DNA of 23,961 nucleotides, taken from contig JBLFWS010000035.1 in the NCBI GenBank assembly GCA_047611865.1, forward strand, positions 1-23,961. The letters are read 5' to 3'. Origin of the DNA: Chlamydiales bacterium. GTDB taxonomy: Bacteria > Chlamydiota > Chlamydiia > Chlamydiales > JBDQID01. Positions within the stretch are counted from its first letter, which is position 1, and every line of letters begins with the position of its first letter. This document shows, piece by piece, positions 1,358 to 16,577 of this stretch. Under the pieces are notes generated by a model. The model did no database searches and was not told the DNA's origin. It was given only the letters and a program-made list of their open reading frames with translations. The position numbers and the translations under genes were made by a program.

Positions 1358-3908
1358 TTAATTGCTTAGCTTGAGTTCAATAAATTCATTGAGCTTCTCT
1401 AAGCTGTCGAGATTGTGGGCCCGGAAGTCTTGAATAGAGCTTAGTCCCACCTCCATTATATCTTCGTGGCAGTATTCCCAATTTTGGAGCATTTCCGGTC
1501 CCCCAGCGATTTCTTCCAGAGCACTCCGTACATTTTCATAGAGTTTCCAAACAGAGGCGCTGTCCCAGGCATTCGTACCGTTCATGGCTAGGGCTTTTAG
1601 GGCACTTCCCTCACTATCTTCTTTTCGGACGGATGCGGGTTTGAGCCTTTGAAGCTCAAGAAGGATTCCTGTCAGACCATTCCCATTATCGAGTTTATAG
1701 GTTTGCTCTGCCAACTTAACCGACAACTTTCGGTGTTGCCAGCGGAGTCGTGCATAATTGGCGTGGAGAGGGCTATCGTCGGGTAATAACGTTCTGAGTT
1801 TTAGAGGGGCTTGAAGGTATTCTCGCCAGCTTCTTAAAACTGAGCGGAGTTGTAGGATCTGCTCTCTAATAGAGCTGGCCAGGTTTCGGATTTCAAGAAA
1901 ATGGTCATGATCTCTTTCATCCACATTTAATAAGGAGAGCTTATCTACTTGTTCCTGGGCCTTCATAATCTCTATATCCAAGGAGGAGTACTCTTGTTCC
2001 ATTTCGATCAGGGTATCTTCAATGTCATTCTGTTCGAATTCGAAAAGTTCCATAGATTCCTTGATTTTACTTTCAGGGAGGCAGTGAATCAAATTTCTTA
2101 CCCGACTTTGGTCCTGCAATGAAATAACAGTTTCTGAGATCTATCGTGTAGACATCTTTCTGGCAATTACATGTAGCTGTGTACTGTTCATTAGGCTGCA
2201 AAGGCCGAGAAGTTTTTCTTTGTTTTCTTCAAAAAGAAAGCCTACAGCAATTGTTAGTGGCGGAATCTCATCAAGAAAAAGCAGGAGGTTGTCATCGCTT
2301 ATGCTAAATTTGATGGCAAGCATCTCTCGTTGCGGCTCGCTCATGGCGTCAACAGCTGCATCTATATGCCAAAGGTTTAAGGCTTTAGAAAAAGATTCTA
2401 GCTGAATAACATCTTGAATTAAGGGGGTGATAGCTTCTACTTGAGCCTGATTTAAAGCAGGTACCATTCCCATAATGTGGTCGAAATTCATAGTGGGTAG
2501 CCTGCCTAAAAGACTGCTCCATAACATCTCGTCTCGAGAGTACGCCGCAAGTGCAAGGATATATGGGGAGAAATTATCGGTTCGCTCAAGGTAGTTGTTA
2601 ATGGATGCATAGTGTGGAGATAATAGATTCGTTCTAACTTTCTTGGGTAGGGTCCGGACGGCTGAGGAGACGTATTCGGAATTAATCAAAGGAAGCAGGT
2701 TCTTTAGAGATCCGACGCTTAAGTCTCTAAAAACTACTCGATATTGCTTTTCTTCAAGGAAATCCAAGAGTCGATAAACTCTTTGGGGGGCCATAGAGGC
2801 GACGTATTCTCTAAGATGTTCATCTTTTATATGATGGATAGCAAAAGAATATTTGTCCCCATTGAGGTCTTCTAAAGCTGAAACAACTTGTGCCTGTGAG
2901 GCTTGGCAGAGAAAAGCATGTAGACTATTGGAGGAAAAAAAACTCACATTAGCTGTGATCCACTTTTGCGCATCTTCATTGGTGTTTTCATATTCTAAGG
3001 CGACTCCGATGTGTGCCGGTGAGAGCTTGTCGAAATTCCGCTGTCTTTTCGATTTGGATAACTGAGAGATGAGATCTTCAGCTTCTTCTAGGATGGCTTC
3101 TTCTTGTCTAGCAGTAAGAGCATGCAGAAGTATGGGGATTTTGGAGTTATGTAGGCTATTACTGGCGAGAATAACTTGTTGATGACTCATCTCGGGAGTA
3201 GAGTATTTTAAGAGTCTATTGGAGAGATAGCCTACTAACTTATGGAAGGTTTTTCTAACCTCTCGCAGAGAAAAATCCTTAAGTTTGTGAATGAGGATGT
3301 CAAGTTCACGATGATGTCAAGTTCACGATGATGAATGTTTAAGAGGCTTTCTTTAAATTTAATGTGGGAAGAGTCGGATAGATCACAGATTTGCTTAGTG
3401 GCCATGCGAGGAAGAAAAGAGGGGAGGTCGTCTTCGGGTAGACAGAGAATTTGCTCCAAAGAAAATTGGCGAATTTGTTTGCTGGAAAAGCAAGCGGATT
3501 GGAGGGGGGAGAGGCTAGATAATTGTTTTTTGTTGAGATAAGAAATTTGCTCTAGAGTCAACCAGGCGACACGGTCCTGAGGGAATGCCAGGTTTAGGTC
3601 TTTAATTTTTTCAAAAGATTCTAAGTCAATAAGCTGTAGTTCTTGTCGGGTCATTATCGAAAAGGAGTTTTCAGTAGAGTGTGGTGGAGAAGAATCAGGA
3701 TGCTCATCTCTTGGTAAAATGCTTGTGATTGAGTGAATAGCATTATCTACAAGATTAAGTAGTGCCTGACCTGAAATTTGGGAAGAAGGGGTGGGATGGG
3801 GACTTGACGTGGAAACGGGGGGGCATAGGCTTCTAAATTATCAGGTGAAAATATTTCTGATTGAGATGAATTAACAGCTGTTACGGGTGATGTAGGGGGA
3901 AAAGACAT
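1358..3908 (-). pseudogene. Fragmented large effector-like gene (~844 aa reconstructed): Ser/Pro-rich N-terminus, helical L-x-P/S-x-Q repeats, C-terminal coiled coil
   Basis: ATG at 3908 with RBS GAGGAAGG. The four ORF-track fragments join into one frame after adding 1 base (plausibly in the G7 run 3817..3823), removing a 17-bp tandem duplication (3296..3329) and reading through a TAG (2141..2143). Confidence 0.8.
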
Positions 3909-4069
3909 AGGCCTTCCTCGATAAAATATTATGCTAGTGGCTGGTCTACAGGAATTAATAGACAGGAGCAAGGATTATTTTAAGATTTACAGTAGAGGAG
4001 GGGCTTGTAGCGTAATTCACTATGTCTCAGCGTCAGCATAACAACGGCATAGAAGGTTTGGGCAAGATC

Positions 4070-4105
4070 TATACCGAAACCAATTCTTGAGGTCGTTTCG
4101 GTATA
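4070..4105. repeat. 36-bp palindromic mini-repeat, copy 2
   Basis: TATACCGAAACCAATTCTTGAGGTCGTTTCGGTATA, with perfect 11-bp arms TATACCGAAAC/GTTTCGGTATA. Confidence 0.85.
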
Positions 4106-4112
4106 GCAGGCA

Positions 4113-5411
4113 CTATTTGTTGATACTATCAAAGACTTTTGCAAGATGAGCGATTTCTTTGAAAAGGACGTGGTATTTTTGTTGACTTAATTTTTTGATC
4201 TCATCACAGCATTCCAATAGGAATGAGATCCTTTCAATGATAGGTTCTTCTTCATTTGACATACGGATATTAGAAGCTTGCTTATCTAGTTCCAGAGCAA
4301 GGTGTGTAAGAGTAGACTTTGCAGCAAGTATCTGTTGCTGGTTCATCCACTCCACCGCATTGAGAATGTCTACCGTAAGGAGAGGGTGGGTCACGCCGGC
4401 AACGATTTGATATAGTTTCATTTTCCCATTGGCTATAGCAGTTGTGACACCCATCGGACGGTGTGCATAAGGACCGAGAAGAATTTTTCTTTGGCGGGGA
4501 TTGAGTTGAATGACTGCTGCAGCAAGTTGTTGAGGAGACAAAATTTTGAGTATTTGTATCAATAGGTCCTGCTTGGCCTCTTCTTGAGGTTTAGGATCTT
4601 CGACAATAGCTTTAACAAGAGTTTGTATTTGAGTTAATGCCATATTTGGAATTATCTTGTTCAATTTTTCAAAAGAGAGCTGGCTGGATATAAGCTTAGT
4701 TGTAGTTTCCTCACTTAGATGTTTTGTAATAAGTGCTAGTTGATCTAAATCCATATTTTGGATGACCTTCCAAATTTGTAATTCGGACAAAAGAGGAAGT
4801 AGCTTGCGCATAAGAAAGTTCGGAATAGCTTTAACAACCGCGGTGTGTTTCTCTTGATGATCTTTAAGGAGGATAAGCGCCATATGAAGTTTTTTTGCTG
4901 GTAAAAGGGCTGTATCTTCAGCGGGGGATTGGGCAACTTTACAAAGACTATCTAAAAGATTTTCTCGAAATAGTGGATTAGAAGACTGGTTAATCAAGGG
5001 TAAAATTTCTTCTAATTTTTGACTAGCCATTTCAGGAAGGACAGCCTTAATGTGTTCTTGATTTAATGGAATAAGAGTACCAGACTCTGTCATAAAAGTG
5101 ACTTCGGGAAGAGTTCTTTTATCCAGTAAAGAGATAGCTTCTTTCAAATACTTTAATGGGATTTCTGCAAGTATTTTTTTTCTAATGAACCAGTGAGAAA
5201 GTATATTTGGAACAAAGCTATTGATTGTTGATCGCAGCCTTTCTGAAAAAGGTCCAGTTTTTAAGGCTTCTTTGGAGATGATTTTATGGGGGGTTGTTAA
5301 AAGGGCTTTTTTCCCAATATTGATATGATCTAATTCAATTTTAGTTACTTCGCACTCTTCTGTTGCCTGTGACAGCTTTCTTTTTTCAGGCTCGTTAAAC
5401 CCGTCTACCAT
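4113..5411 (-). CDS. Hypothetical alpha-helical repeat protein (MgtE-N/FliG-like repeats), candidate T3SS effector
   Basis: 432-aa intact ORF with RBS-like GGGGAAG and repeated units such as LLPLLSELQI, IIPNMALTQI, LKILSPQQL and QLNPRQR. It is divergent from slc1. Confidence 0.7.
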   Translation of the reverse strand: MVDGFNEPEKRKLSQATEECEVTKIELDHINIGKKALLTTPHKIISKEALKTGPFSERLRSTINSFVPNILSHWFIRKKILAEIPLKYLKEAISLLDKRTLPEVTFMTESGTLIPLNQEHIKAVLPEMASQKLEEILPLINQSSNPLFRENLLDSLCKVAQSPAEDTALLPAKKLHMALILLKDHQEKHTAVVKAIPNFLMRKLLPLLSELQIWKVIQNMDLDQLALITKHLSEETTTKLISSQLSFEKLNKIIPNMALTQIQTLVKAIVEDPKPQEEAKQDLLIQILKILSPQQLAAAVIQLNPRQRKILLGPYAHRPMGVTTAIANGKMKLYQIVAGVTHPLLTVDILNAVEWMNQQQILAAKSTLTHLALELDKQASNIRMSNEEEPIIERISFLLECCDEIKKLSQQKYHVLFKEIAHLAKVFDSINK

Positions 5412-5705: not shown

Positions 5706-6212
5706 ATGTCCATTGAAAATGCTCAGGAAAACCTGCAGGAATTCGGAAAAGAACTAGGACTTGAAGGGTTGGAGTTTGACGAAAACAACACCTGTATTCT
5801 CGGTATCGATGATGAGTTTTCCATGCACCTTACTTACGAACCGAATTCAGATAGATTGTATATTTACTCCCCACTTCTTGATGGGCTTCCAAAAGAGAAA
5901 AAGTTAAAGCTTAAGCTTTACGAAAAGCTTCTTGAAGGGTCCATGCTTGGTGGACAAATGGCTGGCGGCGGCGTCGGAGTCGCTGTAAATGAAGAGCTTA
6001 TCCTTATGCACTGCACAATTGATATGTCACATGCTGCTACAGCTGCACTCCGAGCATTCGCTCCTCTTTACGTTGAAACTGTAGAGAAATGGCGCGCAAT
6101 TTGTACTGATATTTCTGAAGGTCGTGAGCCAAATGTTGAAGAGCCTAAGAGCGCTTCAGGAACACCATCTGCTGATATTTCAAAAGGTGGCGAAGGCTTC
6201 ATCAAGATCTAG
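5706..6212 (+). CDS. slc1: Type III secretion chaperone, CesT/SycE family (Slc1/CT043 ortholog)
   Basis: AQENLQEFGKELGL...FDENNTCILGIDDEFSMHLTYEPNSDRLYIYSPLLDGLP...LLEGSMLGGQMAGGGVGVA...FAPLYVETVEKWR matches the conserved chlamydial CT043 family as recalled. RBS AGGAGG. Confidence 0.9.
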   Translation: MSIENAQENLQEFGKELGLEGLEFDENNTCILGIDDEFSMHLTYEPNSDRLYIYSPLLDGLPKEKKLKLKLYEKLLEGSMLGGQMAGGGVGVAVNEELILMHCTIDMSHAATAALRAFAPLYVETVEKWRAICTDISEGREPNVEEPKSASGTPSADISKGGEGFIKI

Positions 6213-6229
6213 TGATATTATCTTGTTTT

Positions 6230-6263
6230 GCGCGAGCTGCATAGCTCGCGCGAAGATTTTTTT
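6230..6263 (+). terminator. Rho-independent terminator after slc1
   Basis: GCGCGAGCT-GCAT-AGCTCGCGC stem followed by GAAGA and T7. Confidence 0.75.
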
Positions 6264-6463
6264 CTTACTGCTCAACTTATCTTGAGCTACGACCTGTTTA
6301 TTTCCTTTTATTTTTATTTTTTAGATTCTACTACTTCAGATTCACACGATCGTTTGTGTCTATTTTTTCGCCAACGTTACTTGGGGAATTTACAAAATTC
6401 GATAAAACTTTGAAAGTCTGAAAGCTAAAGAAACCTGCAAAACCATAGGATTAAAATTTTAAG

Positions 6464-6492
6464 TTGACGGAGAGTCATCTCTGTGAGACTAT
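6464..6492 (+). promoter_or_regulatory. Possible sigma66/70 promoter for the flagellin-like operon
   Basis: TTGACG-N17-GACTAT with a TG extension; the -10 is weak. Confidence 0.35.
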
Positions 6493-6525
6493 GCGGCAAG
6501 AGGTCGAATTAACCAAGAGAGTGTC

Positions 6526-7911
6526 ATGACATCAAGAATTAATGCAGACACAGCCAGGTTGTTCAATCAGTATAAATCGACAGTTATTAAAATTCAAAAA
6601 ACTGTGGAACAGTTATCTACTGGTCGACGAATTGTAGACGCTGGTGATGGAGTTTCAAGTTTTGAAAGATCCGAAAAGCTAAGCATTGACAGGGCTTCGG
6701 GATTAGTTAAGATGCAGGCAATACAATCACGTCTTAGTTGGTATGGCTCAAGCAATACCTACTTGACTGAGATACGTGAAAGCGTTACCAAGATGTCAGA
6801 GCTAAGCATGCATGCGCTTAGTGGGGCGACATCTGTTGAAGATCTAAATATTCTTGATGGTGAATTCCAGTCACTGAAAGCTAGGATAGCACAGGTTGTT
6901 GATGGAGAGGGAGGGGAGAGGCTTCCTCATGGAACCTTTGGCGATGTTCCTTTCTTTTTGGGCTTTTCTCCAGGTGTAGTTTTAAACACCTTACAGGAGG
7001 GGGACGGACTGACTGATAAAGCTGTTAACATGTATACCGGTTTTAATCATGAAGGTTTTCCCACCCTGCCATTTCTGACCTCTAGTGATTTGGACACCAC
7101 GGGCATCCCCAAAACAACACCAAAATATACCGGAACAGCATCAGCTGGTAGTACCACGACGATCACTTTGCCAGAAACGGCATCTTCTATTGACGATGTC
7201 TATCAGAATCTAGTGATAAGTATTACTGGGGGGGCGGGAAGCGGACAAACAGCGACAATTGCAAGTTATGATGGAGTGACTCGGGTGGCTACTTTAACAG
7301 CTGCAGTGGGCACAGCTTTGGATAATACGTCTCAGTTCAGTATAGATTCTAATCTTCCCAACTATACTCTAATGGACATTGGTGGCCTGAAAAGTGTTCG
7401 TTTTGCAAGCCATGTTTGGGGTGCTGACAATAATCGTATGGATCACCTGGATTCCAGCACACCGACTTTTAAGGCACAGACTGCTATAGAGAGGGAATTT
7501 CGTACAGCAAATGGTATTGCCGATACTGATCTTGACCCCAGGACACATGAAGAGAAGATTGCTCGTAGAAAATTGAATATTTTTGATCCAGAGTTTGGAA
7601 ATGTTAAATCGAAAGAAAATGCCAAGCGCATGTTTGAGCAGCTGGGTAATGCGATTGATCAGATAAGTATATTTATCACTAGAGAAGACTCCAAAGCAGA
7701 GTCTCTGAATCAGCAGTATGACTTTTTTGTGGAGATCCGAGGTAGGCAGGATGTGGCGATACAAAACTTTAGTGGGGTGGATTTTCCGAAGGCAGCAGCT
7801 ACTATGGAGCAGTTGAAGGTGGCTCACGGAATGATTTTCGAGTTAGCTTCAAGGCTTAGTGAAAATGCTGGCCTTATTAATGACTTAGTGTCGAATAAAG
7901 GGAAGCGTTAA
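6526..7911 (+). CDS. Divergent flagellin-family protein with central inserted beta-rich domain
   Basis: N-terminal RIN...VEQLSTGRRIVDAGD...LTEIRESVTKMSELS...EFQSLKARI parallels Flagellin_N (ERLSSGLRINSAKDD...LQRVRELA). C-terminal AIDQIS...FSGVDFPKAAATM...INDL parallels Flagellin_C (RIEDADYATEVSNM...VLSLL). Confidence 0.82.
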   Translation: MTSRINADTARLFNQYKSTVIKIQKTVEQLSTGRRIVDAGDGVSSFERSEKLSIDRASGLVKMQAIQSRLSWYGSSNTYLTEIRESVTKMSELSMHALSGATSVEDLNILDGEFQSLKARIAQVVDGEGGERLPHGTFGDVPFFLGFSPGVVLNTLQEGDGLTDKAVNMYTGFNHEGFPTLPFLTSSDLDTTGIPKTTPKYTGTASAGSTTTITLPETASSIDDVYQNLVISITGGAGSGQTATIASYDGVTRVATLTAAVGTALDNTSQFSIDSNLPNYTLMDIGGLKSVRFASHVWGADNNRMDHLDSSTPTFKAQTAIEREFRTANGIADTDLDPRTHEEKIARRKLNIFDPEFGNVKSKENAKRMFEQLGNAIDQISIFITREDSKAESLNQQYDFFVEIRGRQDVAIQNFSGVDFPKAAATMEQLKVAHGMIFELASRLSENAGLINDLVSNKGKR

Positions 7912-9218
7912 TGAATAAGCGAAGTATGAAACCATTTCTGGTATTTTTCATTTTGTTTTTCTTTGTGATTCCAGCTTTAGTCATGTCTGCAGAGGAATTG
8001 AATAAAAGCAGAATCCTTAAGGTTGTCAATGATTTAGCTCGGCAGCATGATCGACTCAGTGACGAAATAGAAAAGCTCAAAAGGCTTTTGGGTGCTCACT
8101 CTGAGCTGGATGGCCTAAAGGTTCTTGAGGCAAGAGCTGGCATGCCTGAAAGGTTGAGGATACGGCTGGAAGATGGAATCAAGGCTTTTAATGAAGGGGA
8201 TTTTATTCAGGCAAAAGAAGATTTTTATCTCGCCTGGGAAAACGATTCAGATAGTTATATTACCAACTTTAACTTAGGGCTAGCTTATTATCGACTTGAC
8301 CAGATCCCTCTAGCGAAAAGAATGTTTAAGGTTGCACTTGAAGGAAATTCCAAAATGCCTGAATCGGATAAAATTAAAGATTATCTTGCGGGGGGCGTGT
8401 CAGAGAGAATATCTACTGAGAAGCTTAGTAAAGAGGAACAGGTACTTCATACGGAATTGGTGAATCTTAAGAATGAAGCTGATAGCTATATCAAAGCAAG
8501 TAACCTAACATCTTCAGCAAAGATGAAAGCTTCTGTTGCAACGATGAAAAATATGTTGTTGAAAGCCGAATCTAGTAAGAAGCTTGTGGAAGAATTCTAT
8601 TTACCCGTAGCGGAGGTTTTCTCGGCATATGAAATGTTTGATGAGGCTTTTGCGGTATTTGAGAAATACGAAAAAAGTATGTCAGGAAAAGTACTCCCGG
8701 CAGATTATCATGCAAAGAAACTTTATGCAGAGGAAAAGCTTTCCGAGCAACGAAAAGTCCTGGAGGGTTATAAAAATAACGAGCCAGATCTTGCTATCAG
8801 GCAAACTCTTACCAGAGATCTTCATGAGCTAGGTATATTTAAGGCGCAGCTAGAAGAGTTTGTAACAGAGGCGGGGACGGGGGACGAGGACTTTGATAAG
8901 ATTTGTCAGCGTCTCCGTGAATATCGTTGGGGAAATAAATCAGGAAGGCATGTAATTGTTGTGAATCGCTTTCAGGAGCTTTTGTACAGCTCTCTCCCGG
9001 GGACTTTGCCTTTGTATCGTTACAAAGACGAAAAGGGTAGGGCTTTTTTAAAGGATATTACAATGATTCCTAAAGATCTGAATGGGGAGGATGCCAAGTT
9101 TTTCCCTGTTGATCTCAATGTAAATGGGAAGATTATTCCTTACGTTGTTATGTACGCCTATGCTCCCAAGCACGGAGCCTTTATTATTGTAAGGCTCCCA
9201 AGGGCTGACTTGAGCTGA
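7911..9218 (+). CDS. Secreted/periplasmic TPR protein with C-terminal Cache-like domain
   Basis: Signal peptide (MKPFLVFFILFFFVIPALVMSA-EE), coiled coil, TPR pair (GIKAFNEGDFIQAKEDFYLA; FNLGLAYYRLDQIPLAKRMFKVAL) and a C-terminal YKDEKGRAFLKDI motif as in single Cache domains. The start overlaps the flagellin stop (TAATG); an alternative start is 7926. Confidence 0.75.
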   Translation: MNKRSMKPFLVFFILFFFVIPALVMSAEELNKSRILKVVNDLARQHDRLSDEIEKLKRLLGAHSELDGLKVLEARAGMPERLRIRLEDGIKAFNEGDFIQAKEDFYLAWENDSDSYITNFNLGLAYYRLDQIPLAKRMFKVALEGNSKMPESDKIKDYLAGGVSERISTEKLSKEEQVLHTELVNLKNEADSYIKASNLTSSAKMKASVATMKNMLLKAESSKKLVEEFYLPVAEVFSAYEMFDEAFAVFEKYEKSMSGKVLPADYHAKKLYAEEKLSEQRKVLEGYKNNEPDLAIRQTLTRDLHELGIFKAQLEEFVTEAGTGDEDFDKICQRLREYRWGNKSGRHVIVVNRFQELLYSSLPGTLPLYRYKDEKGRAFLKDITMIPKDLNGEDAKFFPVDLNVNGKIIPYVVMYAYAPKHGAFIIVRLPRADLS

Positions 9219-9246: not shown

Positions 9247-10338
9247 TTATCTGATTCTTACACCTTGGTAACCATAAACGACACCGAAGTCACCAGCTTT
9301 TACTACATGAGCTCTTGTCAGAGCTTCTGGTTTTCCCGCATCGCGGTAAATACGGAGTTGAAGGTATTGGCCTTCACTTTCCAACTGAACACTTGGTTCA
9401 AAAGGAAGTTCATGCTCGTTTCCAAGTAGATATTCGCGGTATGCTGTAACTTGTGGGTCTGTGGCGATTTCTGCGCTTGCTTCTCTACCGATATCCATTG
9501 TGAGATCCCTTTTGTGATGCTCAATATCTTTTTTCTTGCCGTGTATTTCACCGAAATGGCTTATGGTCGCAGGGACTGTCATGCCCATCGGCGGGTTTCC
9601 ACTGTTGGCAATTTGTTTGAGGACATGGAGCCTTCTGTTATCGTAGGAGGTGATACTTCCATCAGGCATGGTATACAAGCTGAGGTGTCCTTTGCTTGAG
9701 TCCCATCCTTTATCTCGTAGGGATGTTTCTAGGTCTTTGAGTGTAAGTTCTCCACCAGTGAGGCTTCCGGCGATAGTCGCGTGGGAGAAGTTGACATTTT
9801 TGAAAAAATCCAAAGCATATTCTTGTATATCTATGGCAACGTGTGCGGCTTTACGGGTGGAAGTTGTGCTTGCGGAGGTTTTTATTGCCTTCGCTTTAGT
9901 TTTTAGATTTTTTGTAAATTCTCTAAACGAGGTTGTTTTTTCAGGCCTGCGTCCACCTCTGCAAAGTTTTTTAAAACCTTGAGTTATATGATCAATATCT
10001 TCCTTGCTCGTTAAGGGAGATGCTACGATTTCATCGAGTTCTCCCCATTTTTCGGTTTCAATTAGTAAATTTAATCTGTTTTCTTGTGGAAAGAGTTGTC
10101 TAGCAATAAATTCAGCTGAGGGTGAGGGGGATGCACTCGCTTCTTCAAATAGTTGCTTGACAGTGTGTGTGCTTTTTCTAGTTGTTGTTTCTAAGGAGGC
10201 TGCGACGAGCTCGCTTGAAGCATGGGGTGTTGGGAGGCATCCTTCTGCATCATCGTACAGTCCTTTTACAGTTGGGGCTGAACGGTAGTGTGCCATTGGC
10301 TGATATAGAATGAGTGCCGTGCATGTTGATAAAGACAT
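9247..10338 (-). CDS. Putative secreted effector with ParB/Srx-like toxin-type domain
   Basis: RBS AGGAGG and a Ser/Thr-rich N-terminus. VNFSHATI...LETSLRDKGW...MPDGSITSYDNRRLHVL resembles the (I)RFSQ...MPDG.LTSxDNRRL motif of ParB-like polymorphic toxin tips. Confidence 0.65.
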   Translation of the reverse strand: MSLSTCTALILYQPMAHYRSAPTVKGLYDDAEGCLPTPHASSELVAASLETTTRKSTHTVKQLFEEASASPSPSAEFIARQLFPQENRLNLLIETEKWGELDEIVASPLTSKEDIDHITQGFKKLCRGGRRPEKTTSFREFTKNLKTKAKAIKTSASTTSTRKAAHVAIDIQEYALDFFKNVNFSHATIAGSLTGGELTLKDLETSLRDKGWDSSKGHLSLYTMPDGSITSYDNRRLHVLKQIANSGNPPMGMTVPATISHFGEIHGKKKDIEHHKRDLTMDIGREASAEIATDPQVTAYREYLLGNEHELPFEPSVQLESEGQYLQLRIYRDAGKPEALTRAHVVKAGDFGVVYGYQGVRIR

Positions 10339-10434
10339 TGTTATCCTCCTGTTATGTTAGTTATAATTATAATTATAACGTATTAATAATAACATTAAGT
10401 AAAGGGTGTAATAAGTTAGTTTAAAAAAAATAAC

Positions 10435-10463
10435 TTGATCTTTTATTAAGATTTAGTTAAAAT
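10435..10463 (+). promoter_or_regulatory. sigma66/70 promoter in AT-rich divergent intergenic region
   Basis: TTGATC-N17-TAAAAT, 35 bp upstream of the ATG at 10499. Confidence 0.65.
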
Positions 10464-10498
10464 AGTGACATTAATTATTTAATAATAAGGGAATTCTG

Positions 10499-11911
10499 AT
10501 GGTTAAATTTGTTATTTCATCGATTAACGTATGTGAATCGTTGCCCTCGAGCTTTCAAGGGGATTCTGTGGAGATGTTTACTCAGGATTCTCACGAGAGT
10601 CGAGTTCAGCAATTATTTGAAAAAAATATTCCCGCATACCTTATTGGAATAACTGAGATGACCGGTGTTGAAGGCGAAACCCTTTATAGTATCTACGACG
10701 GGCCCAGTATTCACAGTTTTCACGACATGAGTCCCTTATTGCCTGATCCTGAAAAGCAGGTGGAAATCAAAAATATTCATTATTTTGCTCTGGACACTTT
10801 CGATCTTGGAAGTAAAAAGGATGGGGTAGTAGAAAAGAGGCCTTCAAAAAGCAAAAAATTCATTCATATTTCTGGAGATGAGCTTCGTATTTTACCCGCA
10901 ATTTCAGTAGCTCAAGATTATGGTAATCCCTATATTTCAAAAGATGATCAGGCTCAGGCTGCTTTTGTTGTAGCTAATGACTGTTACGAAAGGTCTATCG
11001 CGGCGGCCCCAGATAAGAGTAGATCTTTGCCCCTTATGGGAAAAGCTATGAAATGGGCGTGGTCTTCTGGAGAGCATGGCTTACCCCAGGGAAGACAGCT
11101 TTGCGAAAATATTAGCAATGCCTTCTGGAGGCAACAGGTTAGCAATGCCGCGAAAAAACAGGACAAAGAGGAATTACTAGAAGATATTAAGCAGTTTCTA
11201 AAGGAAAATCCTGGAGTGGGGATCAATGAAATACAGCATGAAACCGAATCTTCTAAACGCGAAATTATTTCAGTGCTACAGAAAATGGAGCATAACGGTG
11301 AAATAATACCGGCGAGAGGCCCAAAGGGTAAGGTTTTTTCTCTGGTAGAAATAATGCCTGTCGAAGAAGCGATTCTCTCTCTTTCTCCTGAAAATGAAGT
11401 AGAGGAGAGGATTATTGATGCTCCCTCATGGAGAGAGGGTGTAGAGTATGGCAAACCTCGCCAAGGGCATCCTGAAGGCAAGGTGATTTATCATATTCAG
11501 GAAATTTTCCAGAATATCGAAGAAAAATACGTAAGCTCTCCTTTTCGATCAAAACTTCGGCTTCTCGCTATGGTTCATGACTCTTTTAAGCATCAGGTTT
11601 CTAAAGATGTACCTAAAAGAGGGGCAAATCACCATGGGGCGTACGCGCGTAAATTTACAGAGAGCTTTACTGATGATGAAGGACTTCTTGAAATTACTCG
11701 TCGTCACGATGATGCTTATAACATCTGGCGAAAAGGGAAGAATAGTGGAGACTGGGAAGCTTCGGAAAATGAAGTCAGGCAGTTAATTTTGGATTTGGGT
11801 GATAATGTAGCCCTCTATCATGCATTTTTTGAATGCGATTGCAAAACGGGCAATAAAACGCATGCTCCTTTTGAGTGGTTTTCAGAGATAATACGCTCCT
11901 CCGAAATGTAA
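10499..11911 (+). CDS. Multidomain protein: effector-like N-terminus, Sel1-like repeat, winged HTH, C-terminal HD-family phosphohydrolase
   Basis: HD motifs GHPEG..H, LLAMVHDSFK, HHG, RHDD and ECD. wHTH IKQFLKENPGVGINEIQHET...VLQKMEHNGEI. Sel1-like AQAAFVVA...KAMKWAWSSGEHG. Confidence 0.75.
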   Translation: MVKFVISSINVCESLPSSFQGDSVEMFTQDSHESRVQQLFEKNIPAYLIGITEMTGVEGETLYSIYDGPSIHSFHDMSPLLPDPEKQVEIKNIHYFALDTFDLGSKKDGVVEKRPSKSKKFIHISGDELRILPAISVAQDYGNPYISKDDQAQAAFVVANDCYERSIAAAPDKSRSLPLMGKAMKWAWSSGEHGLPQGRQLCENISNAFWRQQVSNAAKKQDKEELLEDIKQFLKENPGVGINEIQHETESSKREIISVLQKMEHNGEIIPARGPKGKVFSLVEIMPVEEAILSLSPENEVEERIIDAPSWREGVEYGKPRQGHPEGKVIYHIQEIFQNIEEKYVSSPFRSKLRLLAMVHDSFKHQVSKDVPKRGANHHGAYARKFTESFTDDEGLLEITRRHDDAYNIWRKGKNSGDWEASENEVRQLILDLGDNVALYHAFFECDCKTGNKTHAPFEWFSEIIRSSEM

Positions 11912-11975
11912 GCCCCCTCTATAGTCTTTCTGCCCGGACCCGTTAAGGGGGGGGGGGGGTGTATTATTAGGATGA

Positions 11976-12116
11976 GGGGAATTAGATCTTTTTGACTTTT
12001 CCATTTTTAGGCCTTTGTGCACGCTTTAAGTTCTTATTTTATTAGGAATGGAAAAGATAAAGCCATGGATATTCTTCAATTCGCTGGACTCCATGGCGCA
12101 GATCCCGAGATACGTT
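11976..12116 (+). repeat. Diverged duplicate of ssb leader and first 17 codons (direct repeat of 14460..14606)
   Basis: Shared blocks GGGGAATTAG, ACTTTTCCATTTTTAGGC, TTTTATTAGGAATGGAAAAGATAAAG and TGGCGCAGATCCCGAGA.ACGTT. Confidence 0.9.
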
Positions 12117-12166
12117 CAAATCTAAATTATGGAATGAAATGTCCGATAAATCTTGATAAGCTATGA
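12065..12166 (+). pseudogene. ssb 5' relic (33-codon ORF)
   Basis: Translates MDILQFAGLHGADPEIR..., compared with ssb MNIVEIAGRLGADPETR. Confidence 0.8.
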
Positions 12167-12250
12167 GCTTAAAGAGGTAGTCGCAATCTTCAAAAAAAAG
12201 TTTCGTCAGGAGGCGTTGAAATAAAGAACAATTGTTGATATCTTAGGGAT

Positions 12251-13633
12251 ATGGAAGTCGAAGAATCAGTAAGAAAAGTCCTCGGAACACTTCCTAACCT
12301 TCACGGGCGAAAGGAAGAGGATCTGAAATTTCTGATAATGTTCTCTTCAGGAGCAGATAGCACCGCTTTGCTGCTCTTTCTACTAAAAAATACCTGTTAT
12401 AACATTCACGTTCACCATGTAGAATTTAGGACGGCGCATAAGCGTTACTGCGCCGAAAGTGAAGCTACAAAAAAGATTCTTGCTCTGTGTAGAGAGGAGT
12501 ATCGAGATTTTGAGGAAAGTTATTCCGTTTATAATGAAGGGGAGGAAAATGGTTTCGTATATCAAATCTGTGATGAACCCATATGGGCTTTTATTGGAGC
12601 TCGTATGTGGTATAAGATCGGAGGTTATGATGTACTGTGTTTGGGGTTTATCTCCGACGACAATTATTGTTGCGGAGATGATTATAGTGTAATGTCACCA
12701 AAATTAGTATTGAATGCTTTGTTTTATAAGAATGATTCTAACAGAGATAGGACAGCACCGGATCTAGCCTATCCTTTAGCCCATAGCTCAAAAAATGAAG
12801 TTGTAAATAGTCTACCTCAGAAATTCAAAGAGCTTTCCTGGTCTTGTCGTCAGCCGGATTTTAATGATTCAGGAGAGTACAAGTGTTGTGATGCTTGTGG
12901 GGCTTGTTTACAGATTATCAAAGCGCAATTTGAAAATGAGGAAAAAGAACTTATAGCCTCACTAAGAGAATGGAGGGATCCGGGTATCTCTACTGGTGTA
13001 GATATCACAAGATTAATAATCTATACTCTCTACTACATGAAGATACCGCATTCTCAATACATCTTGGAAAAGTATTCTGGCTTCCTGGGAAAAGATTCTT
13101 TTAGACTTCTCTTTTTTGTGCATATCCGCTTTGCAACTGAGTGTAATGATATGTTGGATATCTGTTTTTCCGAAGGGAAGATAACAGTAGAAGAGTTGAA
13201 CTCTTTTATCGTTAATGAGGTAAGCAGCCGAAATCAAGATGCATATGGAGATGAATTCTTTTCTCGCATCACGTTTTTTATGAGAAAATACGGCAAGTAT
13301 ATTACTCCAGAAAGTGGAAATAGCTTACTTCTTTCTTTACAGAGAAAGGGACATTCGTTTGTTGACTTACAGCATTTTTTTGTAGATGAGGTAGGTATTG
13401 ATGTAGGTTTAGTTTTTGAAGCAATGATGTCTTCTTGTGATGAGGAGGTTTTGGAAGAGCGGTCTGTCGATTTTCTAGAGCGATTCTCTGGTAGCATTAG
13501 CGATGAAAGCCTGGAGAAATCTATAGGGACATTAATAAACAGGGGAGAGCATCTCAGAGTTAATAAGCGTACGATCTATAATAAAATAATAGAAAAAGGA
13601 TTTCGTCCCACTAAAGATTACCCCCTCTTTTAG
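12251..13633 (+). CDS. QueC-like PP-loop (adenine nucleotide alpha hydrolase) enzyme with unknown helical C-terminal half
   Basis: PP-loop LIMFSSGADST, followed by PLAHSSKNEV and the zinc motif SWSCRQP...CDACGAC typical of the QueC family; about 230 extra C-terminal residues. Confidence 0.75.
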   Translation: MEVEESVRKVLGTLPNLHGRKEEDLKFLIMFSSGADSTALLLFLLKNTCYNIHVHHVEFRTAHKRYCAESEATKKILALCREEYRDFEESYSVYNEGEENGFVYQICDEPIWAFIGARMWYKIGGYDVLCLGFISDDNYCCGDDYSVMSPKLVLNALFYKNDSNRDRTAPDLAYPLAHSSKNEVVNSLPQKFKELSWSCRQPDFNDSGEYKCCDACGACLQIIKAQFENEEKELIASLREWRDPGISTGVDITRLIIYTLYYMKIPHSQYILEKYSGFLGKDSFRLLFFVHIRFATECNDMLDICFSEGKITVEELNSFIVNEVSSRNQDAYGDEFFSRITFFMRKYGKYITPESGNSLLLSLQRKGHSFVDLQHFFVDEVGIDVGLVFEAMMSSCDEEVLEERSVDFLERFSGSISDESLEKSIGTLINRGEHLRVNKRTIYNKIIEKGFRPTKDYPLF

Positions 13634-14554: not shown

Positions 14555-15055
14555 ATGAATATAGTTGAAATCGCCGGACGCCTTGGCGCAGATCCCGAGA
14601 CACGTTACACTCCCAGTAACCAAAAAGTTACCTCTCTACGCGTAGCAGCACGCACTTTCAAGAGTGGGAAAGAAGACACCATATGGTGGCGCGTTACATG
14701 CTGGGGAGACCGCTTTGACAAGATGCTGAGCTACCTCAAGAAAGGCAGCGCTGTAATCATTATCGGTGAGTTGCAGAAGCCCGATGTTTGGAAAGACCGA
14801 GATGGGAATTCTCAGGTTTCTATGGAACTCACAGCTGAGATGATTAAGTTCAGTCCATTTGGCAAGGGTGACCAGGAAGACTCCAATCAAGAAGGTTCCA
14901 ATCAGGAAAGTGGAGGCGTAGGCTTCCAGAAAGGACAGCAAAACTCTTCCGGACAGAACAATCTTGGCGACTCAGGCTCCTTTGGTGGGTCCGGATCTTC
15001 AGTGGAGATGTCTTCAACACCTGTGGATTCCAGCGATGATGGGCTGCCTTTCTAA
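14555..15055 (+). CDS. ssb: Single-stranded DNA-binding protein
   Basis: MNIVEIAGRLGADPETRYT...WWRVTCWG...LKKGSAVIIIGEL OB fold, Gly/Ser-rich linker and acidic tip DDGLPF. Confidence 0.98.
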   Translation: MNIVEIAGRLGADPETRYTPSNQKVTSLRVAARTFKSGKEDTIWWRVTCWGDRFDKMLSYLKKGSAVIIIGELQKPDVWKDRDGNSQVSMELTAEMIKFSPFGKGDQEDSNQEGSNQESGGVGFQKGQQNSSGQNNLGDSGSFGGSGSSVEMSSTPVDSSDDGLPF

Positions 15056-15071
15056 ATAAGGGAATAAAAAG

Positions 15072-16577
15072 ATGGATTTTTCTTCAGTAGCAAATGTAGA
15101 TAAGCGAAAAGCTGCCGACGTTCTTGTTCTGCCCCTATGGCAGGTAAAGGACGGTGCTGAATGCGCGGTAAAGTGCGGTGCCCTAAAGTCTCATGTAACA
15201 GGACCTGTTAGTGCTGGTGACTTTAAAGGGAAGGAAGGGGAAGTTGTATTTGTTTACCCTTCTCAAAACAAAGAAAGTCGTATTGCCCTTTTGGGTTTGG
15301 GAAAAGAAAAAGATCTTTCCTCAGAAACTCTGCGCCGCTCTTTTGCAAGCTTGGTAAAGTCTTGTCAAAAGAAAGAGGACGTCACATCGTTGAATGTATT
15401 TCTTCCGGACACAAAGTATTTGTCAAAGGAAGCAGTCTCTAGAGGTGTATCAGAGGGCTTGTATTTAGCCAACTATTCCTATGACAAGTTAAAAAAGGAT
15501 TCCCTGAAGAATGGGGGGAAAACTGTTACCTTGAAAAAGGTGGCTTTTATAGGCGCAGACCGTGCTCTCATGCTAAAGATGAACAAGATAGGACTTCTTT
15601 GTGAGTCCGTTCATTTTGCCAGAGATTTGGTTAACGGGAATGCTGATGAGGTAAATCCTCAATATCTAGCTTCTCTTGCAAAAGACTTGGGGAAGAAGCT
15701 GCCTAAAGTGAAGACTACGGTTTTTGATAAAAAGCGTATTGAAAAAGAGGGCATGGGACTTCTTCTGGCTGTTAATAGAGGTTCTCGGAATGACCCAGCT
15801 TTCATTATTATGGAATACAAGGGTGCGCCAAAGTCTAAGGATTGTACGGTTTTGGTTGGTAAAGGGGTCACCTATGATACAGGTGGATTGAACCTTAAGC
15901 CAACAGGTTCTATGGAAACGATGAAGTGTGATATGGCTGGTTCAGCAGTGGCCTTTGGCACAATTTATGCGGCTGCTTCCATGGGCCTCAATGTCAATCT
16001 GACAGCAGTAGTTGCTGCTACAGAAAATTGCATCGATGCCAAAAGCTACAAGCCTGGCGATGTATACTCCAGTTATTCAGGGAAGACGATCGAAATAGGC
16101 AATACCGATGCTGAGGGTCGACTGACACTGGCAGATGCTTTGGCCTATGCGGAAAAGAATTTATCCCCTACTCGTATGATTGACTTTGCTACTCTCACAG
16201 GAGCTATCGTAATAGCTCTGGGAGAAGAGACGATCGGCATGATGAGTAATGATGAGGGACTATCCGGTGCGTTTAGCAAGGCAGGAGAGGAGACTTACGA
16301 ACGAGTTTGTCGCCTTCCTTTGTACAAAGAGTATCGAGATCAGTTGAAGTCTGATATAGCCGATATCAGTAACCTGGGTGGTCGCCCGGCAGGATCTATT
16401 ACAGCAGGACTTTTTCTTCAGGAATTTGTAGGGAAAACTCCTTGGGTACATTTTGATATAGCTGGAACGGCCTATCTGTCAAAAGCACGTCGCTACAACC
16501 CAAAGAATGGCACAGGTTCAGGTGTTCGTCTTATGGTGGAGTACTTGCAGAACTTGACTGTGAAGGGAAAGAAGTAA
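15072..16577 (+). CDS. pepA: Leucyl aminopeptidase (M17)
   Basis: LVGKGVTYDTGG, MKCDMAG, NTDAEGRL, ATLTGA and WVHFDIAG motifs. Confidence 0.98.
   Translation: MDFSSVANVDKRKAADVLVLPLWQVKDGAECAVKCGALKSHVTGPVSAGDFKGKEGEVVFVYPSQNKESRIALLGLGKEKDLSSETLRRSFASLVKSCQKKEDVTSLNVFLPDTKYLSKEAVSRGVSEGLYLANYSYDKLKKDSLKNGGKTVTLKKVAFIGADRALMLKMNKIGLLCESVHFARDLVNGNADEVNPQYLASLAKDLGKKLPKVKTTVFDKKRIEKEGMGLLLAVNRGSRNDPAFIIMEYKGAPKSKDCTVLVGKGVTYDTGGLNLKPTGSMETMKCDMAGSAVAFGTIYAAASMGLNVNLTAVVAATENCIDAKSYKPGDVYSSYSGKTIEIGNTDAEGRLTLADALAYAEKNLSPTRMIDFATLTGAIVIALGEETIGMMSNDEGLSGAFSKAGEETYERVCRLPLYKEYRDQLKSDIADISNLGGRPAGSITAGLFLQEFVGKTPWVHFDIAGTAYLSKARRYNPKNGTGSGVRLMVEYLQNLTVKGKK

Follow-up and report, generated by a model that had tools for sequence, protein, structure and literature searches.

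A two-gene locus on contig C35

The DNA analysed here, called the window throughout, is the entire contig C35 (23,961 bp) of a Chlamydiales assembly of 3.59 Mb in 272 contigs (G000; 95.5% completeness, 2.5% contamination, per-contig GC content even at 0.38-0.45). A UPF0242 protein encoded in the genome, together with the names that sources give to relatives, assigns the organism to Chlamydiales. Its main subject is a pair of adjacent genes on the forward strand, the first of which encodes P0001, a divergent member of the flagellin superfamily, and the second P0002, a protein that combines a signal-like N-terminus with tetratricopeptide repeats (TPRs) and an sCache-like domain (Table 1). Both open reading frames (ORFs), which an initial annotation had proposed from the sequence alone, are real, and the overlap of stop and start codon described there can be read directly in the sequence: the TAA stop codon of P0001 (7909-7911) has its final base in common with the ATG of P0002 (7911-7913).

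Upstream of P0001, a terminator-like hairpin and a spacer of 313 nucleotides (nt) follow the gene for P0003, a CesT-family chaperone, and the gene downstream of P0002 (9247-10338) is convergent. Given the upstream terminator and spacer, the TAATG overlap and the convergent neighbour, P0001-P0002 is, as judged from the gene layout, a self-contained bicistronic unit in which the TAATG would provide translational coupling.

Table 1. Window coordinates of the P0001-P0002 pair, of its parts and of the neighbouring features (aa, amino acids; AF2, AlphaFold2; pLDDT, predicted local distance difference test; VIA, a structure search independent of Foldseek)
Feature	Position	Strand	Assignment and basis
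P0001 ORF	6526..7911	+	461 aa, divergent flagellin-superfamily protein; Flagellin_N match, D1 superposition
P0001 N-terminal D0/D1 helices, residues 1-126	6526..6903	+	AF2 helices; Pfam match at residues 15-125
P0001 inserted beta-domain, residues 195-277	7108..7356	+	AF2 pLDDT; repeats in phage tail/TcA-like proteins
P0001 family-specific conserved segment, residues 294-359	7405..7602	+	Invariant alignment columns
P0001 C-terminal D1/D0 helices, residues 363-456	7612..7893	+	AF2 helices; weak 13-bit profile alignment
TAATG stop/start overlap	7909..7913	+	Sequence itself
P0002 ORF	7911..9218	+	435 aa, Sec-signal TPR + sCache-like protein
P0002 signal-peptide-like N-terminus, residues 1-26	7911..7988	+	Basic n-region followed by a hydrophobic run, by eye
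P0002 TPR repeats, residues 80-160	8148..8390	+	VIA, Foldseek, Pfam TPR families of relatives
P0002 sCache-like domain, residues 293-432	8787..9206	+	VIA, Atlas neighbours
P0003, CesT-family type III secretion chaperone	5706..6212	+	Pfam CesT, 103.6 bits
Intrinsic terminator-like hairpin 3' of the chaperone gene	6226..6255	+	13-pair stem (7 G-C), loop of 4, T-run
ssb and pepA, downstream anchors of the slc1-[pair]-ssb-pepA block	14555..16577	+	Pfam SSB, Peptidase_M17; synteny

Family, fold and domains of the two proteins

The N-terminal part of P0001 is recognised by the Pfam family Flagellin_N (PF00669; 35.4 bits against a cut-off of 26.6), which also exceeds its cut-off in five of the six full-length P0001 orthologues scanned (26.8-37.5 bits). 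The same scan gave no match in the orthologue of genome G022, in the divergent form of G045 and in the shortened form of G039, and Flagellin_C (PF00700) has no match in P0001 at E≤0.01. The helical flagellin domains initially assigned to both ends of the protein thus stand for the N-terminal family match and for the AF2 model (mean pLDDT 62.6), and fall short only for the C-terminal Pfam family. Helices are modelled at residues 6-30, 44-98, 104-126, 363-416 and 420-456, which is the flagellin order ND0/ND1a/ND1b...CD1/CD0, and the motif TKMSELSM, singled out earlier as an eroded flagellin signature, is present at residues 87-94.

Searched against the Protein Data Bank, a profile of 14 P0001-family members recovered solved flagellins at E 5.5e-14 and Salmonella FlgL at 1.5e-4. 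The top matches are flagellins of approximately 285 aa, Leptospira FlaB entries among them, and profile positions 350-445 align with the flagellin C-terminus, albeit weakly (13 bits). All 18 Foldseek matches of the P0001 model at E≤0.001 are flagellins or FlgL, with X. campestris FlgL (5zj0) as the best. Likewise, the first 18 rows returned by VIA are all flagellin or FlgL, the best of them (9ygu_Y1) at Z 14.6 with a root mean square deviation (rmsd) of 11.9 over 229 residues. The best low-rmsd superposition in VIA places the D1 domain of P0001 on P. aeruginosa FliC (4nx9; Z 13.5, rmsd 2.3, 157 residues), and further ones were obtained with 5gy2_D (Z 11.8, rmsd 2.4) and B. cereus FlgL (5ziy_B; Z 10.3, rmsd 2.2).

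The curated models do not claim P0001 for either of the established classes. An assignment as filament flagellin was rejected: the best NCBIfam flagellin model, NF038071, reaches 38.2 bits against a cut-off of 365, and all ten matches lie far below their cut-offs. (NF033876 weakly matches one of the canonical flagellins of the same genome.) The assignment as FlgL was rejected as well, since P0001 scores 28.3 bits with TIGR02550 (cut-off 127.2) while the 316-aa product of the gene beside flgK, the canonical FlgL, scores 196.6; a homologue search yielded no match between P0001 and this FlgL, and a search of P0001 against PHROGs yielded none either. Among full-length members, the 14-sequence alignment contains 38 invariant columns, and both D0 segments are conserved across family-level divergence. 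The N-terminal motif of the family, LSTGxRxxxPGD, presumably resembles that of FlgL. P0001 is a real but very divergent flagellin-superfamily protein and an orthologue of neither FliC nor FlgL, which upholds the non-canonical flagellin that the initial annotation had seen in it.

Between the two helical parts lies the inserted beta-domain, with AF2 pLDDT values of 83-93 for residues 201-270, falling to 72 for residues 271-280. At 38-51% identity, residues 195-277 resemble repeats in P0012-P0018, which are phage-tail-like proteins (P0013 corresponds to the minor tail protein phrog_290). When the P0001-family profile was searched exhaustively, most of the top 150 matches covered positions ~190-280 alone, and the module recurs up to 13 times per protein, in proteins of up to 3,351 aa. 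Six module-repeat proteins were scanned with Pfam; one (P0063) carries TcA toxin domains and the others carry no Pfam family. VIA indicates a weak likeness of the beta-domain to the siphophage baseplate-tail protein 8gtc_P (Z 7.7). The module itself, of ~80 residues, matches no Pfam family and, from its sequence, looks like an undescribed and widespread repeat domain. It is duplicated in tandem in the P0001 orthologues of G022 and G023 (L015:685-2298 and L014:1495-3138), which accounts for their length of 537-547 aa. We infer that the insert may act as an exposed binding or decoration module.

C-terminal to the insert follows the family-specific segment WGADN ... TxEEKxARRxLNIFDPEFGN, which has low pLDDT and is kept in derivatives that lack D0 (see below). 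Invariant in 14 sequences are W298, G299, N302, F315, T319, E322, R326, N329, T340, E343, K344, R347, R348, N351, F353 and D354.

P0002 was modelled with a mean pLDDT of 83.5. By inspection, a signal-like hydrophobic N-terminus is present in P0002 and in 27 of its 28 aligned relatives, the exception being P0036. Its repeats superpose in VIA on the designed TPR 1na3_B (Z 12.8, rmsd 2.0, 86 residues), Foldseek returns TPR proteins, and relatives carry precomputed Pfam TPR families. The C-terminal domain superposes on 4k08, a periplasmic chemoreceptor sensor domain (Z 11.4, rmsd 3.6, 131 of 144 residues), and further on 9hvj, a dCache domain (Z 11.2), and on 4ywz (Z 10.8). In line with this, the structural neighbours of the ESM Atlas model of P0002 are sCache_2/dCache_2 clusters, with a TM score of 0.67 by the length of the neighbour and an aligned part that stays below the bar of the Atlas for naming a family. 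P0002 itself matches no Pfam or NCBIfam family, Cache included. The description as a signal-peptide TPR-Cache protein therefore holds at the level of the predicted fold, as TPR plus sCache-like domain without a sequence-family match.

Complex prediction with P0002 (residues 27-435) and P0001 returned a score of 0.00, which is evidence neither for nor against a contact between them. The idea that the TPRs of P0002 bind the WGADN...NIFDPEFGN segment is weakened by the conservation of this segment in derivatives whose genomes lack P0002.

Flagellar genes and the distribution of the pair

Family searches confirmed that the window contains no other flagellar genes, and P0001 had initially been regarded as an orphan flagellin. 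This term has to be dropped, as a full flagellar gene set is present on other contigs of the same assembly, in which Flagellin_N alone has 12 matches, 11 of them above the cut-off, and ten genes other than P0001. On contig C21, flgF-flgG-flgA-flgH-flgI-flgJ-like-flgN-flgK-flgL-fliW is followed by four tandem flagellin genes (608-639 aa), and another flagellin gene (581 aa) stands apart from these; C106 carries motA-motB-flgE-flgD-fliK, and short flagellins (264-286 aa) are encoded on four other contigs. FliD, FliS, one 4HB-type methyl-accepting chemotaxis protein with CheW and CheA, and two to three FHIPEP genes complete the inventory. Since FliD is encoded in the genome, P0001 was rejected as a substitute for a missing flagellar cap. 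The FliD gene lies between dnaG and mutS and the flagellar genes are scattered; therefore, the lack of flagellar neighbours on C35 means little, and a location away from the main cluster is nothing unusual. The four tandem flagellin genes (L022:473-9454) share their contig with glycosyltransferase, sulfotransferase and polysaccharide-deacetylase genes, and glycosylation of the flagellins is possible. On C122 (L024:7457-9350), the gene of a 286-aa short flagellin has a further CesT-family chaperone gene (41 bits) nearby, so that the genome contains two neighbourhoods of chaperone and flagellin.

The distribution of the pair was followed in 301 genomes from the order, 300 of which were scored for P0002 and for Flg_bbr_C, the family of rod and hook proteins (G093 left out). 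Flg_bbr_C is present in 10 of the 300 genomes, and P0002 in exactly the same ten (10 of 10 flagellate genomes, 0 of 290 others), which represent nine family codes. P0001 matched in 15 of the 301 genomes: eight encode a full-length form, the flagellate genome G045 a divergent form of 390 aa and three a shortened form, whereas the remaining three matches are irrelevant, being ordinary flagellins (G004) or the beta-module alone (G026, G082). A P0001-family gene lies directly upstream of P0002 in nine of the ten flagellate genomes, and the two genes overlap by 1-4 nt in six of these nine and are 3-31 nt apart in the other three. The two-gene module seen in the window is thus conserved. P0001 falls outside the ordinary FliC and FlgL, and the TPR gene is kept together with it, so the refuting outcome named in the initial annotation did not arise.

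Sampling 300 genomes at the phylum level revealed no further flagellate genome. In a species-level genome collection, full-length relatives of P0002 make up 4 of 24 loci, all of them in Chlamydiales records; at the other 20 loci the match stays within query residues 20-252, in the TPR-bearing N-terminal half. Clustered at 50%, the P0001 family comprises roughly 25 full-length representatives and several shortened ones among the matches listed.

The shortened P0001 forms occur in three genomes without rod and hook genes, namely G039 (351 aa), G072 (348 aa) and G085 (249 aa), beside ssb-pepA (L016:1432-2487 on the minus strand, L029:1444-2490 on the minus strand and L030:1183-1932 on the plus strand, respectively). 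The first 60-70 residues and the C-terminal D0/D1 helices are missing from them; the ND1 helices and the WGADN...NIFDPEFGN segment are retained. The P0002 profile was without a match in all five of the shortened-form genomes searched (0/5). Between G039 and G072, the shortened forms are 40.6% identical over 342 aligned residues, and a crude ratio of nonsynonymous to synonymous substitutions (dN/dS) is 0.26, with dS saturated at 2.4. From these comparisons, the shortened forms look maintained rather than decaying. They stand separately in families f39 and f24.

Interpretation and comparison with known systems

On balance, the evidence leans towards P0001-P0002 being a lineage-specific flagellar or chemotaxis accessory module of environmental chlamydiae, in which P0001 would be a minor exported subunit of the axial family, equipped with a binding domain. 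P0001 would then represent an old third class of flagellin-superfamily protein, which keeps the five axial helices (ND0, ND1a, ND1b, CD1, CD0) and bears between them a beta-domain, of the type that phage tail proteins and TcA-type toxins would use in repeats as an outer or receptor-binding module, followed by the conserved segment. The protein would be exported by the flagellar type III apparatus and could be built in as a low-abundance axial or filament-associated subunit displaying the binding domain. P0002 would be exported by Sec, and its periplasmic role might be that of a scaffold tied to the flagellum or to chemotaxis, or that of a ligand sensor, possibly in contact with P0001.

Several observations weigh against this accessory module, the first of which concern regulation. 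Six of the nine canonical flagellin genes of G000 are preceded by a TCCGATA box (on C21, L022:473-9454 and L021:5253-6998, and on C268), and five flagellin genes on C21 have in addition a C/A-AGT element ~15 nt upstream of the box. This arrangement fits sigma28-type promoters as known from their consensus; fliW is adjacent. These genes have long leaders with strong GGAGGA ribosome sites, and the leaders of the long flagellins measure ~170 nt and are rich in GGA. Upstream of P0001, there is only TTCGATAA at -126, with no -35 element, and a weak ribosome site, which bears out the initial statement that a sigma28 promoter is missing here. The TCCGATA box is likewise absent from the upstream regions of six P0001 orthologues, G040 having only a TCGATA that overlaps the start codon. 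No sigma54 element (GG-N10-GC) was found within 330 nt upstream in G000, G001, G009, G028 and G041 by a scan that was run without a positive control, and the scan gave low-scoring matches only (≤8 of 11 consensus positions) in G040, G022, G023 and G045. Scanning the plus strand at 6213-6525 for sigma70 promoters gave no match. Hence, the pair does not obviously belong to the late flagellin class. The seven sequencing runs listed as containing the stretch are all of DNA, which speaks neither for nor against its expression.

The second group of objections comes from the distribution. G004, a flagellate genome of 97% completeness, has no P0001-family member even when searched with the family profile, though P0002 is present; a P0001 homologue upstream of this P0002 was considered and rejected, the gene there being ychF. 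As the P0001-family gene of G045 is moreover degenerate, P0001 is dispensable for the flagellum. Conversely, the D0-less forms persist without rod and hook genes and without P0002, at the dN/dS given above, and these sequence comparisons suggest a role of the conserved core for which neither polymerisation nor a flagellum nor P0002 is required. Judged from their sequences, the two proteins also would not obviously meet, as P0002 would be directed to the periplasm by its signal peptide and an exported axial protein would travel inside the export channel. Finally, co-occurrence with the flagellum may partly reflect shared ancestry. On a tree of slc1 and pepA (30 genomes, 673 columns, quick search, 4 of 27 inner branches well supported), the flagellate label changes five times, and the well-supported branches force only one of these changes. 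G004 groups with two non-flagellates at a Shimodaira-Hasegawa-like approximate likelihood ratio (SH-aLRT) of 91, and G000 and G001 group with G012 at 88. Because the tree is poorly resolved, an independent co-loss of pair and flagellum is only suggested.

Some of these observations would be accommodated more readily if P0001 were a non-polymerising, flagellin-like protein that is released by way of the flagellar export apparatus and whose beta-domain and conserved segment make it an adhesin or a host-interaction factor, a role continued by the D0-less forms. Campylobacter FlaC is a comparable secreted flagellin-like protein. The weak Shine-Dalgarno-like sequence and the lack of a flagellin-type promoter, an insert that belongs to the modules of phage tail proteins and TcA-type toxins, the apparent purifying selection on a core without D0 and without a flagellum, and the dispensability of P0001 in the flagellate G004 all agree with such a factor. 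We nevertheless regard it as an unlikely explanation, since both D0 segments are conserved in the full-length members, as expected for axial assembly, P0002 has no place in it, and secretion and host contact are hypothetical.

Slightly less probable still is a combined scenario, in which the P0001 family consists of flagellin-derived host- or surface-binding proteins rather than structural filament parts, with P0002 as a periplasmic or sensor partner. In flagellate chlamydiae, such a protein would be exported by the flagellar apparatus and present a beta-module of receptor-binding type, in common with phage tail fibres and Tc toxins; after loss of the flagellum, some lineages would have trimmed D0 and kept the core as a flagellum-independent factor, possibly for export by the injectisome with the neighbouring Slc1-type chaperone. 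If true, an obligate intracellular bacterium would here have turned a flagellin into an effector-like protein, of which few cases are documented.

The flagellar link might also be merely phylogenetic, with a decaying flagellin relic and an unrelated periplasmic sensor surviving in deep lineages that happened to keep their flagella. This we consider improbable. The marker tree is compatible with a single flagellate clade, some lineages show P0001 decaying or lost, and no promoter in common with flagellar genes was found; on the other side stand the exact match of P0002 (10 of 10 against 0 of 290), the spread of the flagellate genomes over nine families, the grouping of flagellates with non-flagellates at SH-aLRT 88-91, the separate losses indicated by the derivatives in f39 and f24, and the 38 invariant columns of full-length P0001, which attest to its good conservation.

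The neighbourhood of the pair bears on a last alternative. Relatives of the chaperone P0003 were found in all 31 genomes searched (58-84% identity), where the sources name them 'CesT family type III secretion system chaperone'. We take P0003 to be an Slc1-like chaperone; the gene of Slc1 stands beside ssb and pepA in Chlamydia trachomatis as well. Of the Slc1 initially reported next door, the CesT family is confirmed and the name was returned by no tool. In non-flagellate genomes, the chaperone gene lies directly beside ssb at 9 of 30 loci, with pepA next at six of the nine, and one gene intervenes at two more. The order is slc1-P0001-P0002-ssb-pepA in G022 and slc1-relic-ssb-pepA in the non-flagellate G085, and record L062 shows pepA-ssb followed by divergent slc1-P0001-P0002. 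The chaperone gene adjoins the pair in eight of the ten flagellates, the exceptions being G028 and G004, and hairpins with T-runs after slc1 are also seen by eye in the upstream sequences of G040 and G022. As the chaperone is universal and stands beside ssb in non-flagellates, its adjacency to the pair looks like inherited gene order; on the available sequences, the arrangement is most simply explained by an old slc1-[pair]-ssb-pepA block that lost the pair in some lineages, rather than by a chaperone-client operon.

It is therefore very doubtful that P0001 is an injectisome substrate served by the Slc1-like CesT chaperone with P0002 as its dedicated partner, as the initial annotation had suggested: the adjacency in eight of ten flagellates comes in three different orientations, in G085 the chaperone gene is followed at a distance of 50 nt by the shortened form, and the export signals of flagella and injectisomes are both N-terminal, yet a strong terminator and the 313-nt spacer separate chaperone and P0001, the chaperone is universal while P0001 is confined to flagellate lineages, the functionally unrelated ssb and pepA share the same conserved adjacency, chaperone and pair in G028, and chaperone and P0002 in G004, lie on separate contigs, and P0002 with its Sec signal cannot be a cytoplasmic partner.

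Between P0002 and ssb, the window holds three further ORFs (9247-13633) of 363 aa on the minus strand, of 470 aa, and of 460 aa with a weakly PP-loop/QueC-like N-terminus. As ssb follows P0002 directly in G022, these genes may be a lineage-specific insertion. At the other end of the window, four consecutive ORFs of 253, 349, 139 and 432 aa on the minus strand (1358-5411) encode helical, leucine-rich proteins; a family search matched none of them, with a sub-threshold MgtE_N signal in the 349-aa ORF (23.5 against 25.9 bits).

To our knowledge, chlamydial flagella first became apparent from genomes in 2017, and none has ever been seen. The main text of Collingro et al. (2017, PMC5604735) describes a complete flagellum encoded by some environmental and marine chlamydiae, and chlamydial flagellar gene sets are also found in PMC8242063. 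Among the trees presented in PMC5604735, that of FlgL is the only one in which the chlamydial sequences are not monophyletic, and we may speculate that this reflects mixing with a P0001-type paralogue. The words flagellin, TPR, tetratricopeptide and Slc1 do not occur in its main text, and a literature search, whose scope did not extend to the supplementary gene table of that paper, retrieved no description of the P0001-P0002 pair. The flagellin survey in PMC7018530, as far as its selection step is concerned, retained only proteins with both Pfam domains and therefore would have missed the P0001 family.

The flagellar gene set is otherwise standard, and the pair is an undescribed addition to it that is specific to chlamydiae. 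Within the preferred reading as an accessory module, P0001 and P0002 are candidates for the means by which an obligate intracellular bacterium senses or attaches during a motile, host-seeking stage. They provide a marker pair for flagellate chlamydiae in metagenomes, and the shortened derivatives offer a testable case of the fate of axial proteins after the loss of the flagellum.

With regard to known systems, P0002 shares its signal peptide with the periplasmic TPR scaffolds PflA and PflB of the Campylobacter flagellar motor, and its TPRs superpose on PflB (9leq_B; Z 12.2, rmsd 2.8, 101 residues); this likeness is generic, as designed TPRs reach the same scores. With stand-alone periplasmic sCache sensor domains, P0002 shares the fold of its C-terminal domain, which superposes on the sCache domain of a chemoreceptor (4k08). 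Full-length relatives of P0002 were found only in chlamydiae. We know of no described flagellar protein that unites TPR and Cache.

With bacterial flagellins of the FliC/FlaB type, P0001 shares the N-terminal Pfam match, the fold of D1, the order of the helices and an insert at the place of D2/D3. It differs from them in the lack of a Flagellin_C match, the replaced motif (TKMSELSM), the extra WGADN...NIFDPEFGN segment, the missing sigma28-type box and the TPR-Cache gene that always comes next. FlgL is related to P0001 through the superfamily and through the top Foldseek match (5zj0), and the Joint Genome Institute (JGI) names one P0001 relative 'flagellin-like hook-associated protein FlgL'; in contrast, the gene of FlgL adjoins flgK (flgN-flgK-flgL-fliW on C21), whereas P0001 lies between the CesT chaperone and TPR genes. 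Flagellins with functional inserts, such as flagellinolysin and the giant flagellins, combine a flagellin scaffold with a folded foreign domain in the variable region. P0001 follows the same principle with a small beta-module in place of a protease, and, unlike in those proteins, its helical core is itself strongly diverged.

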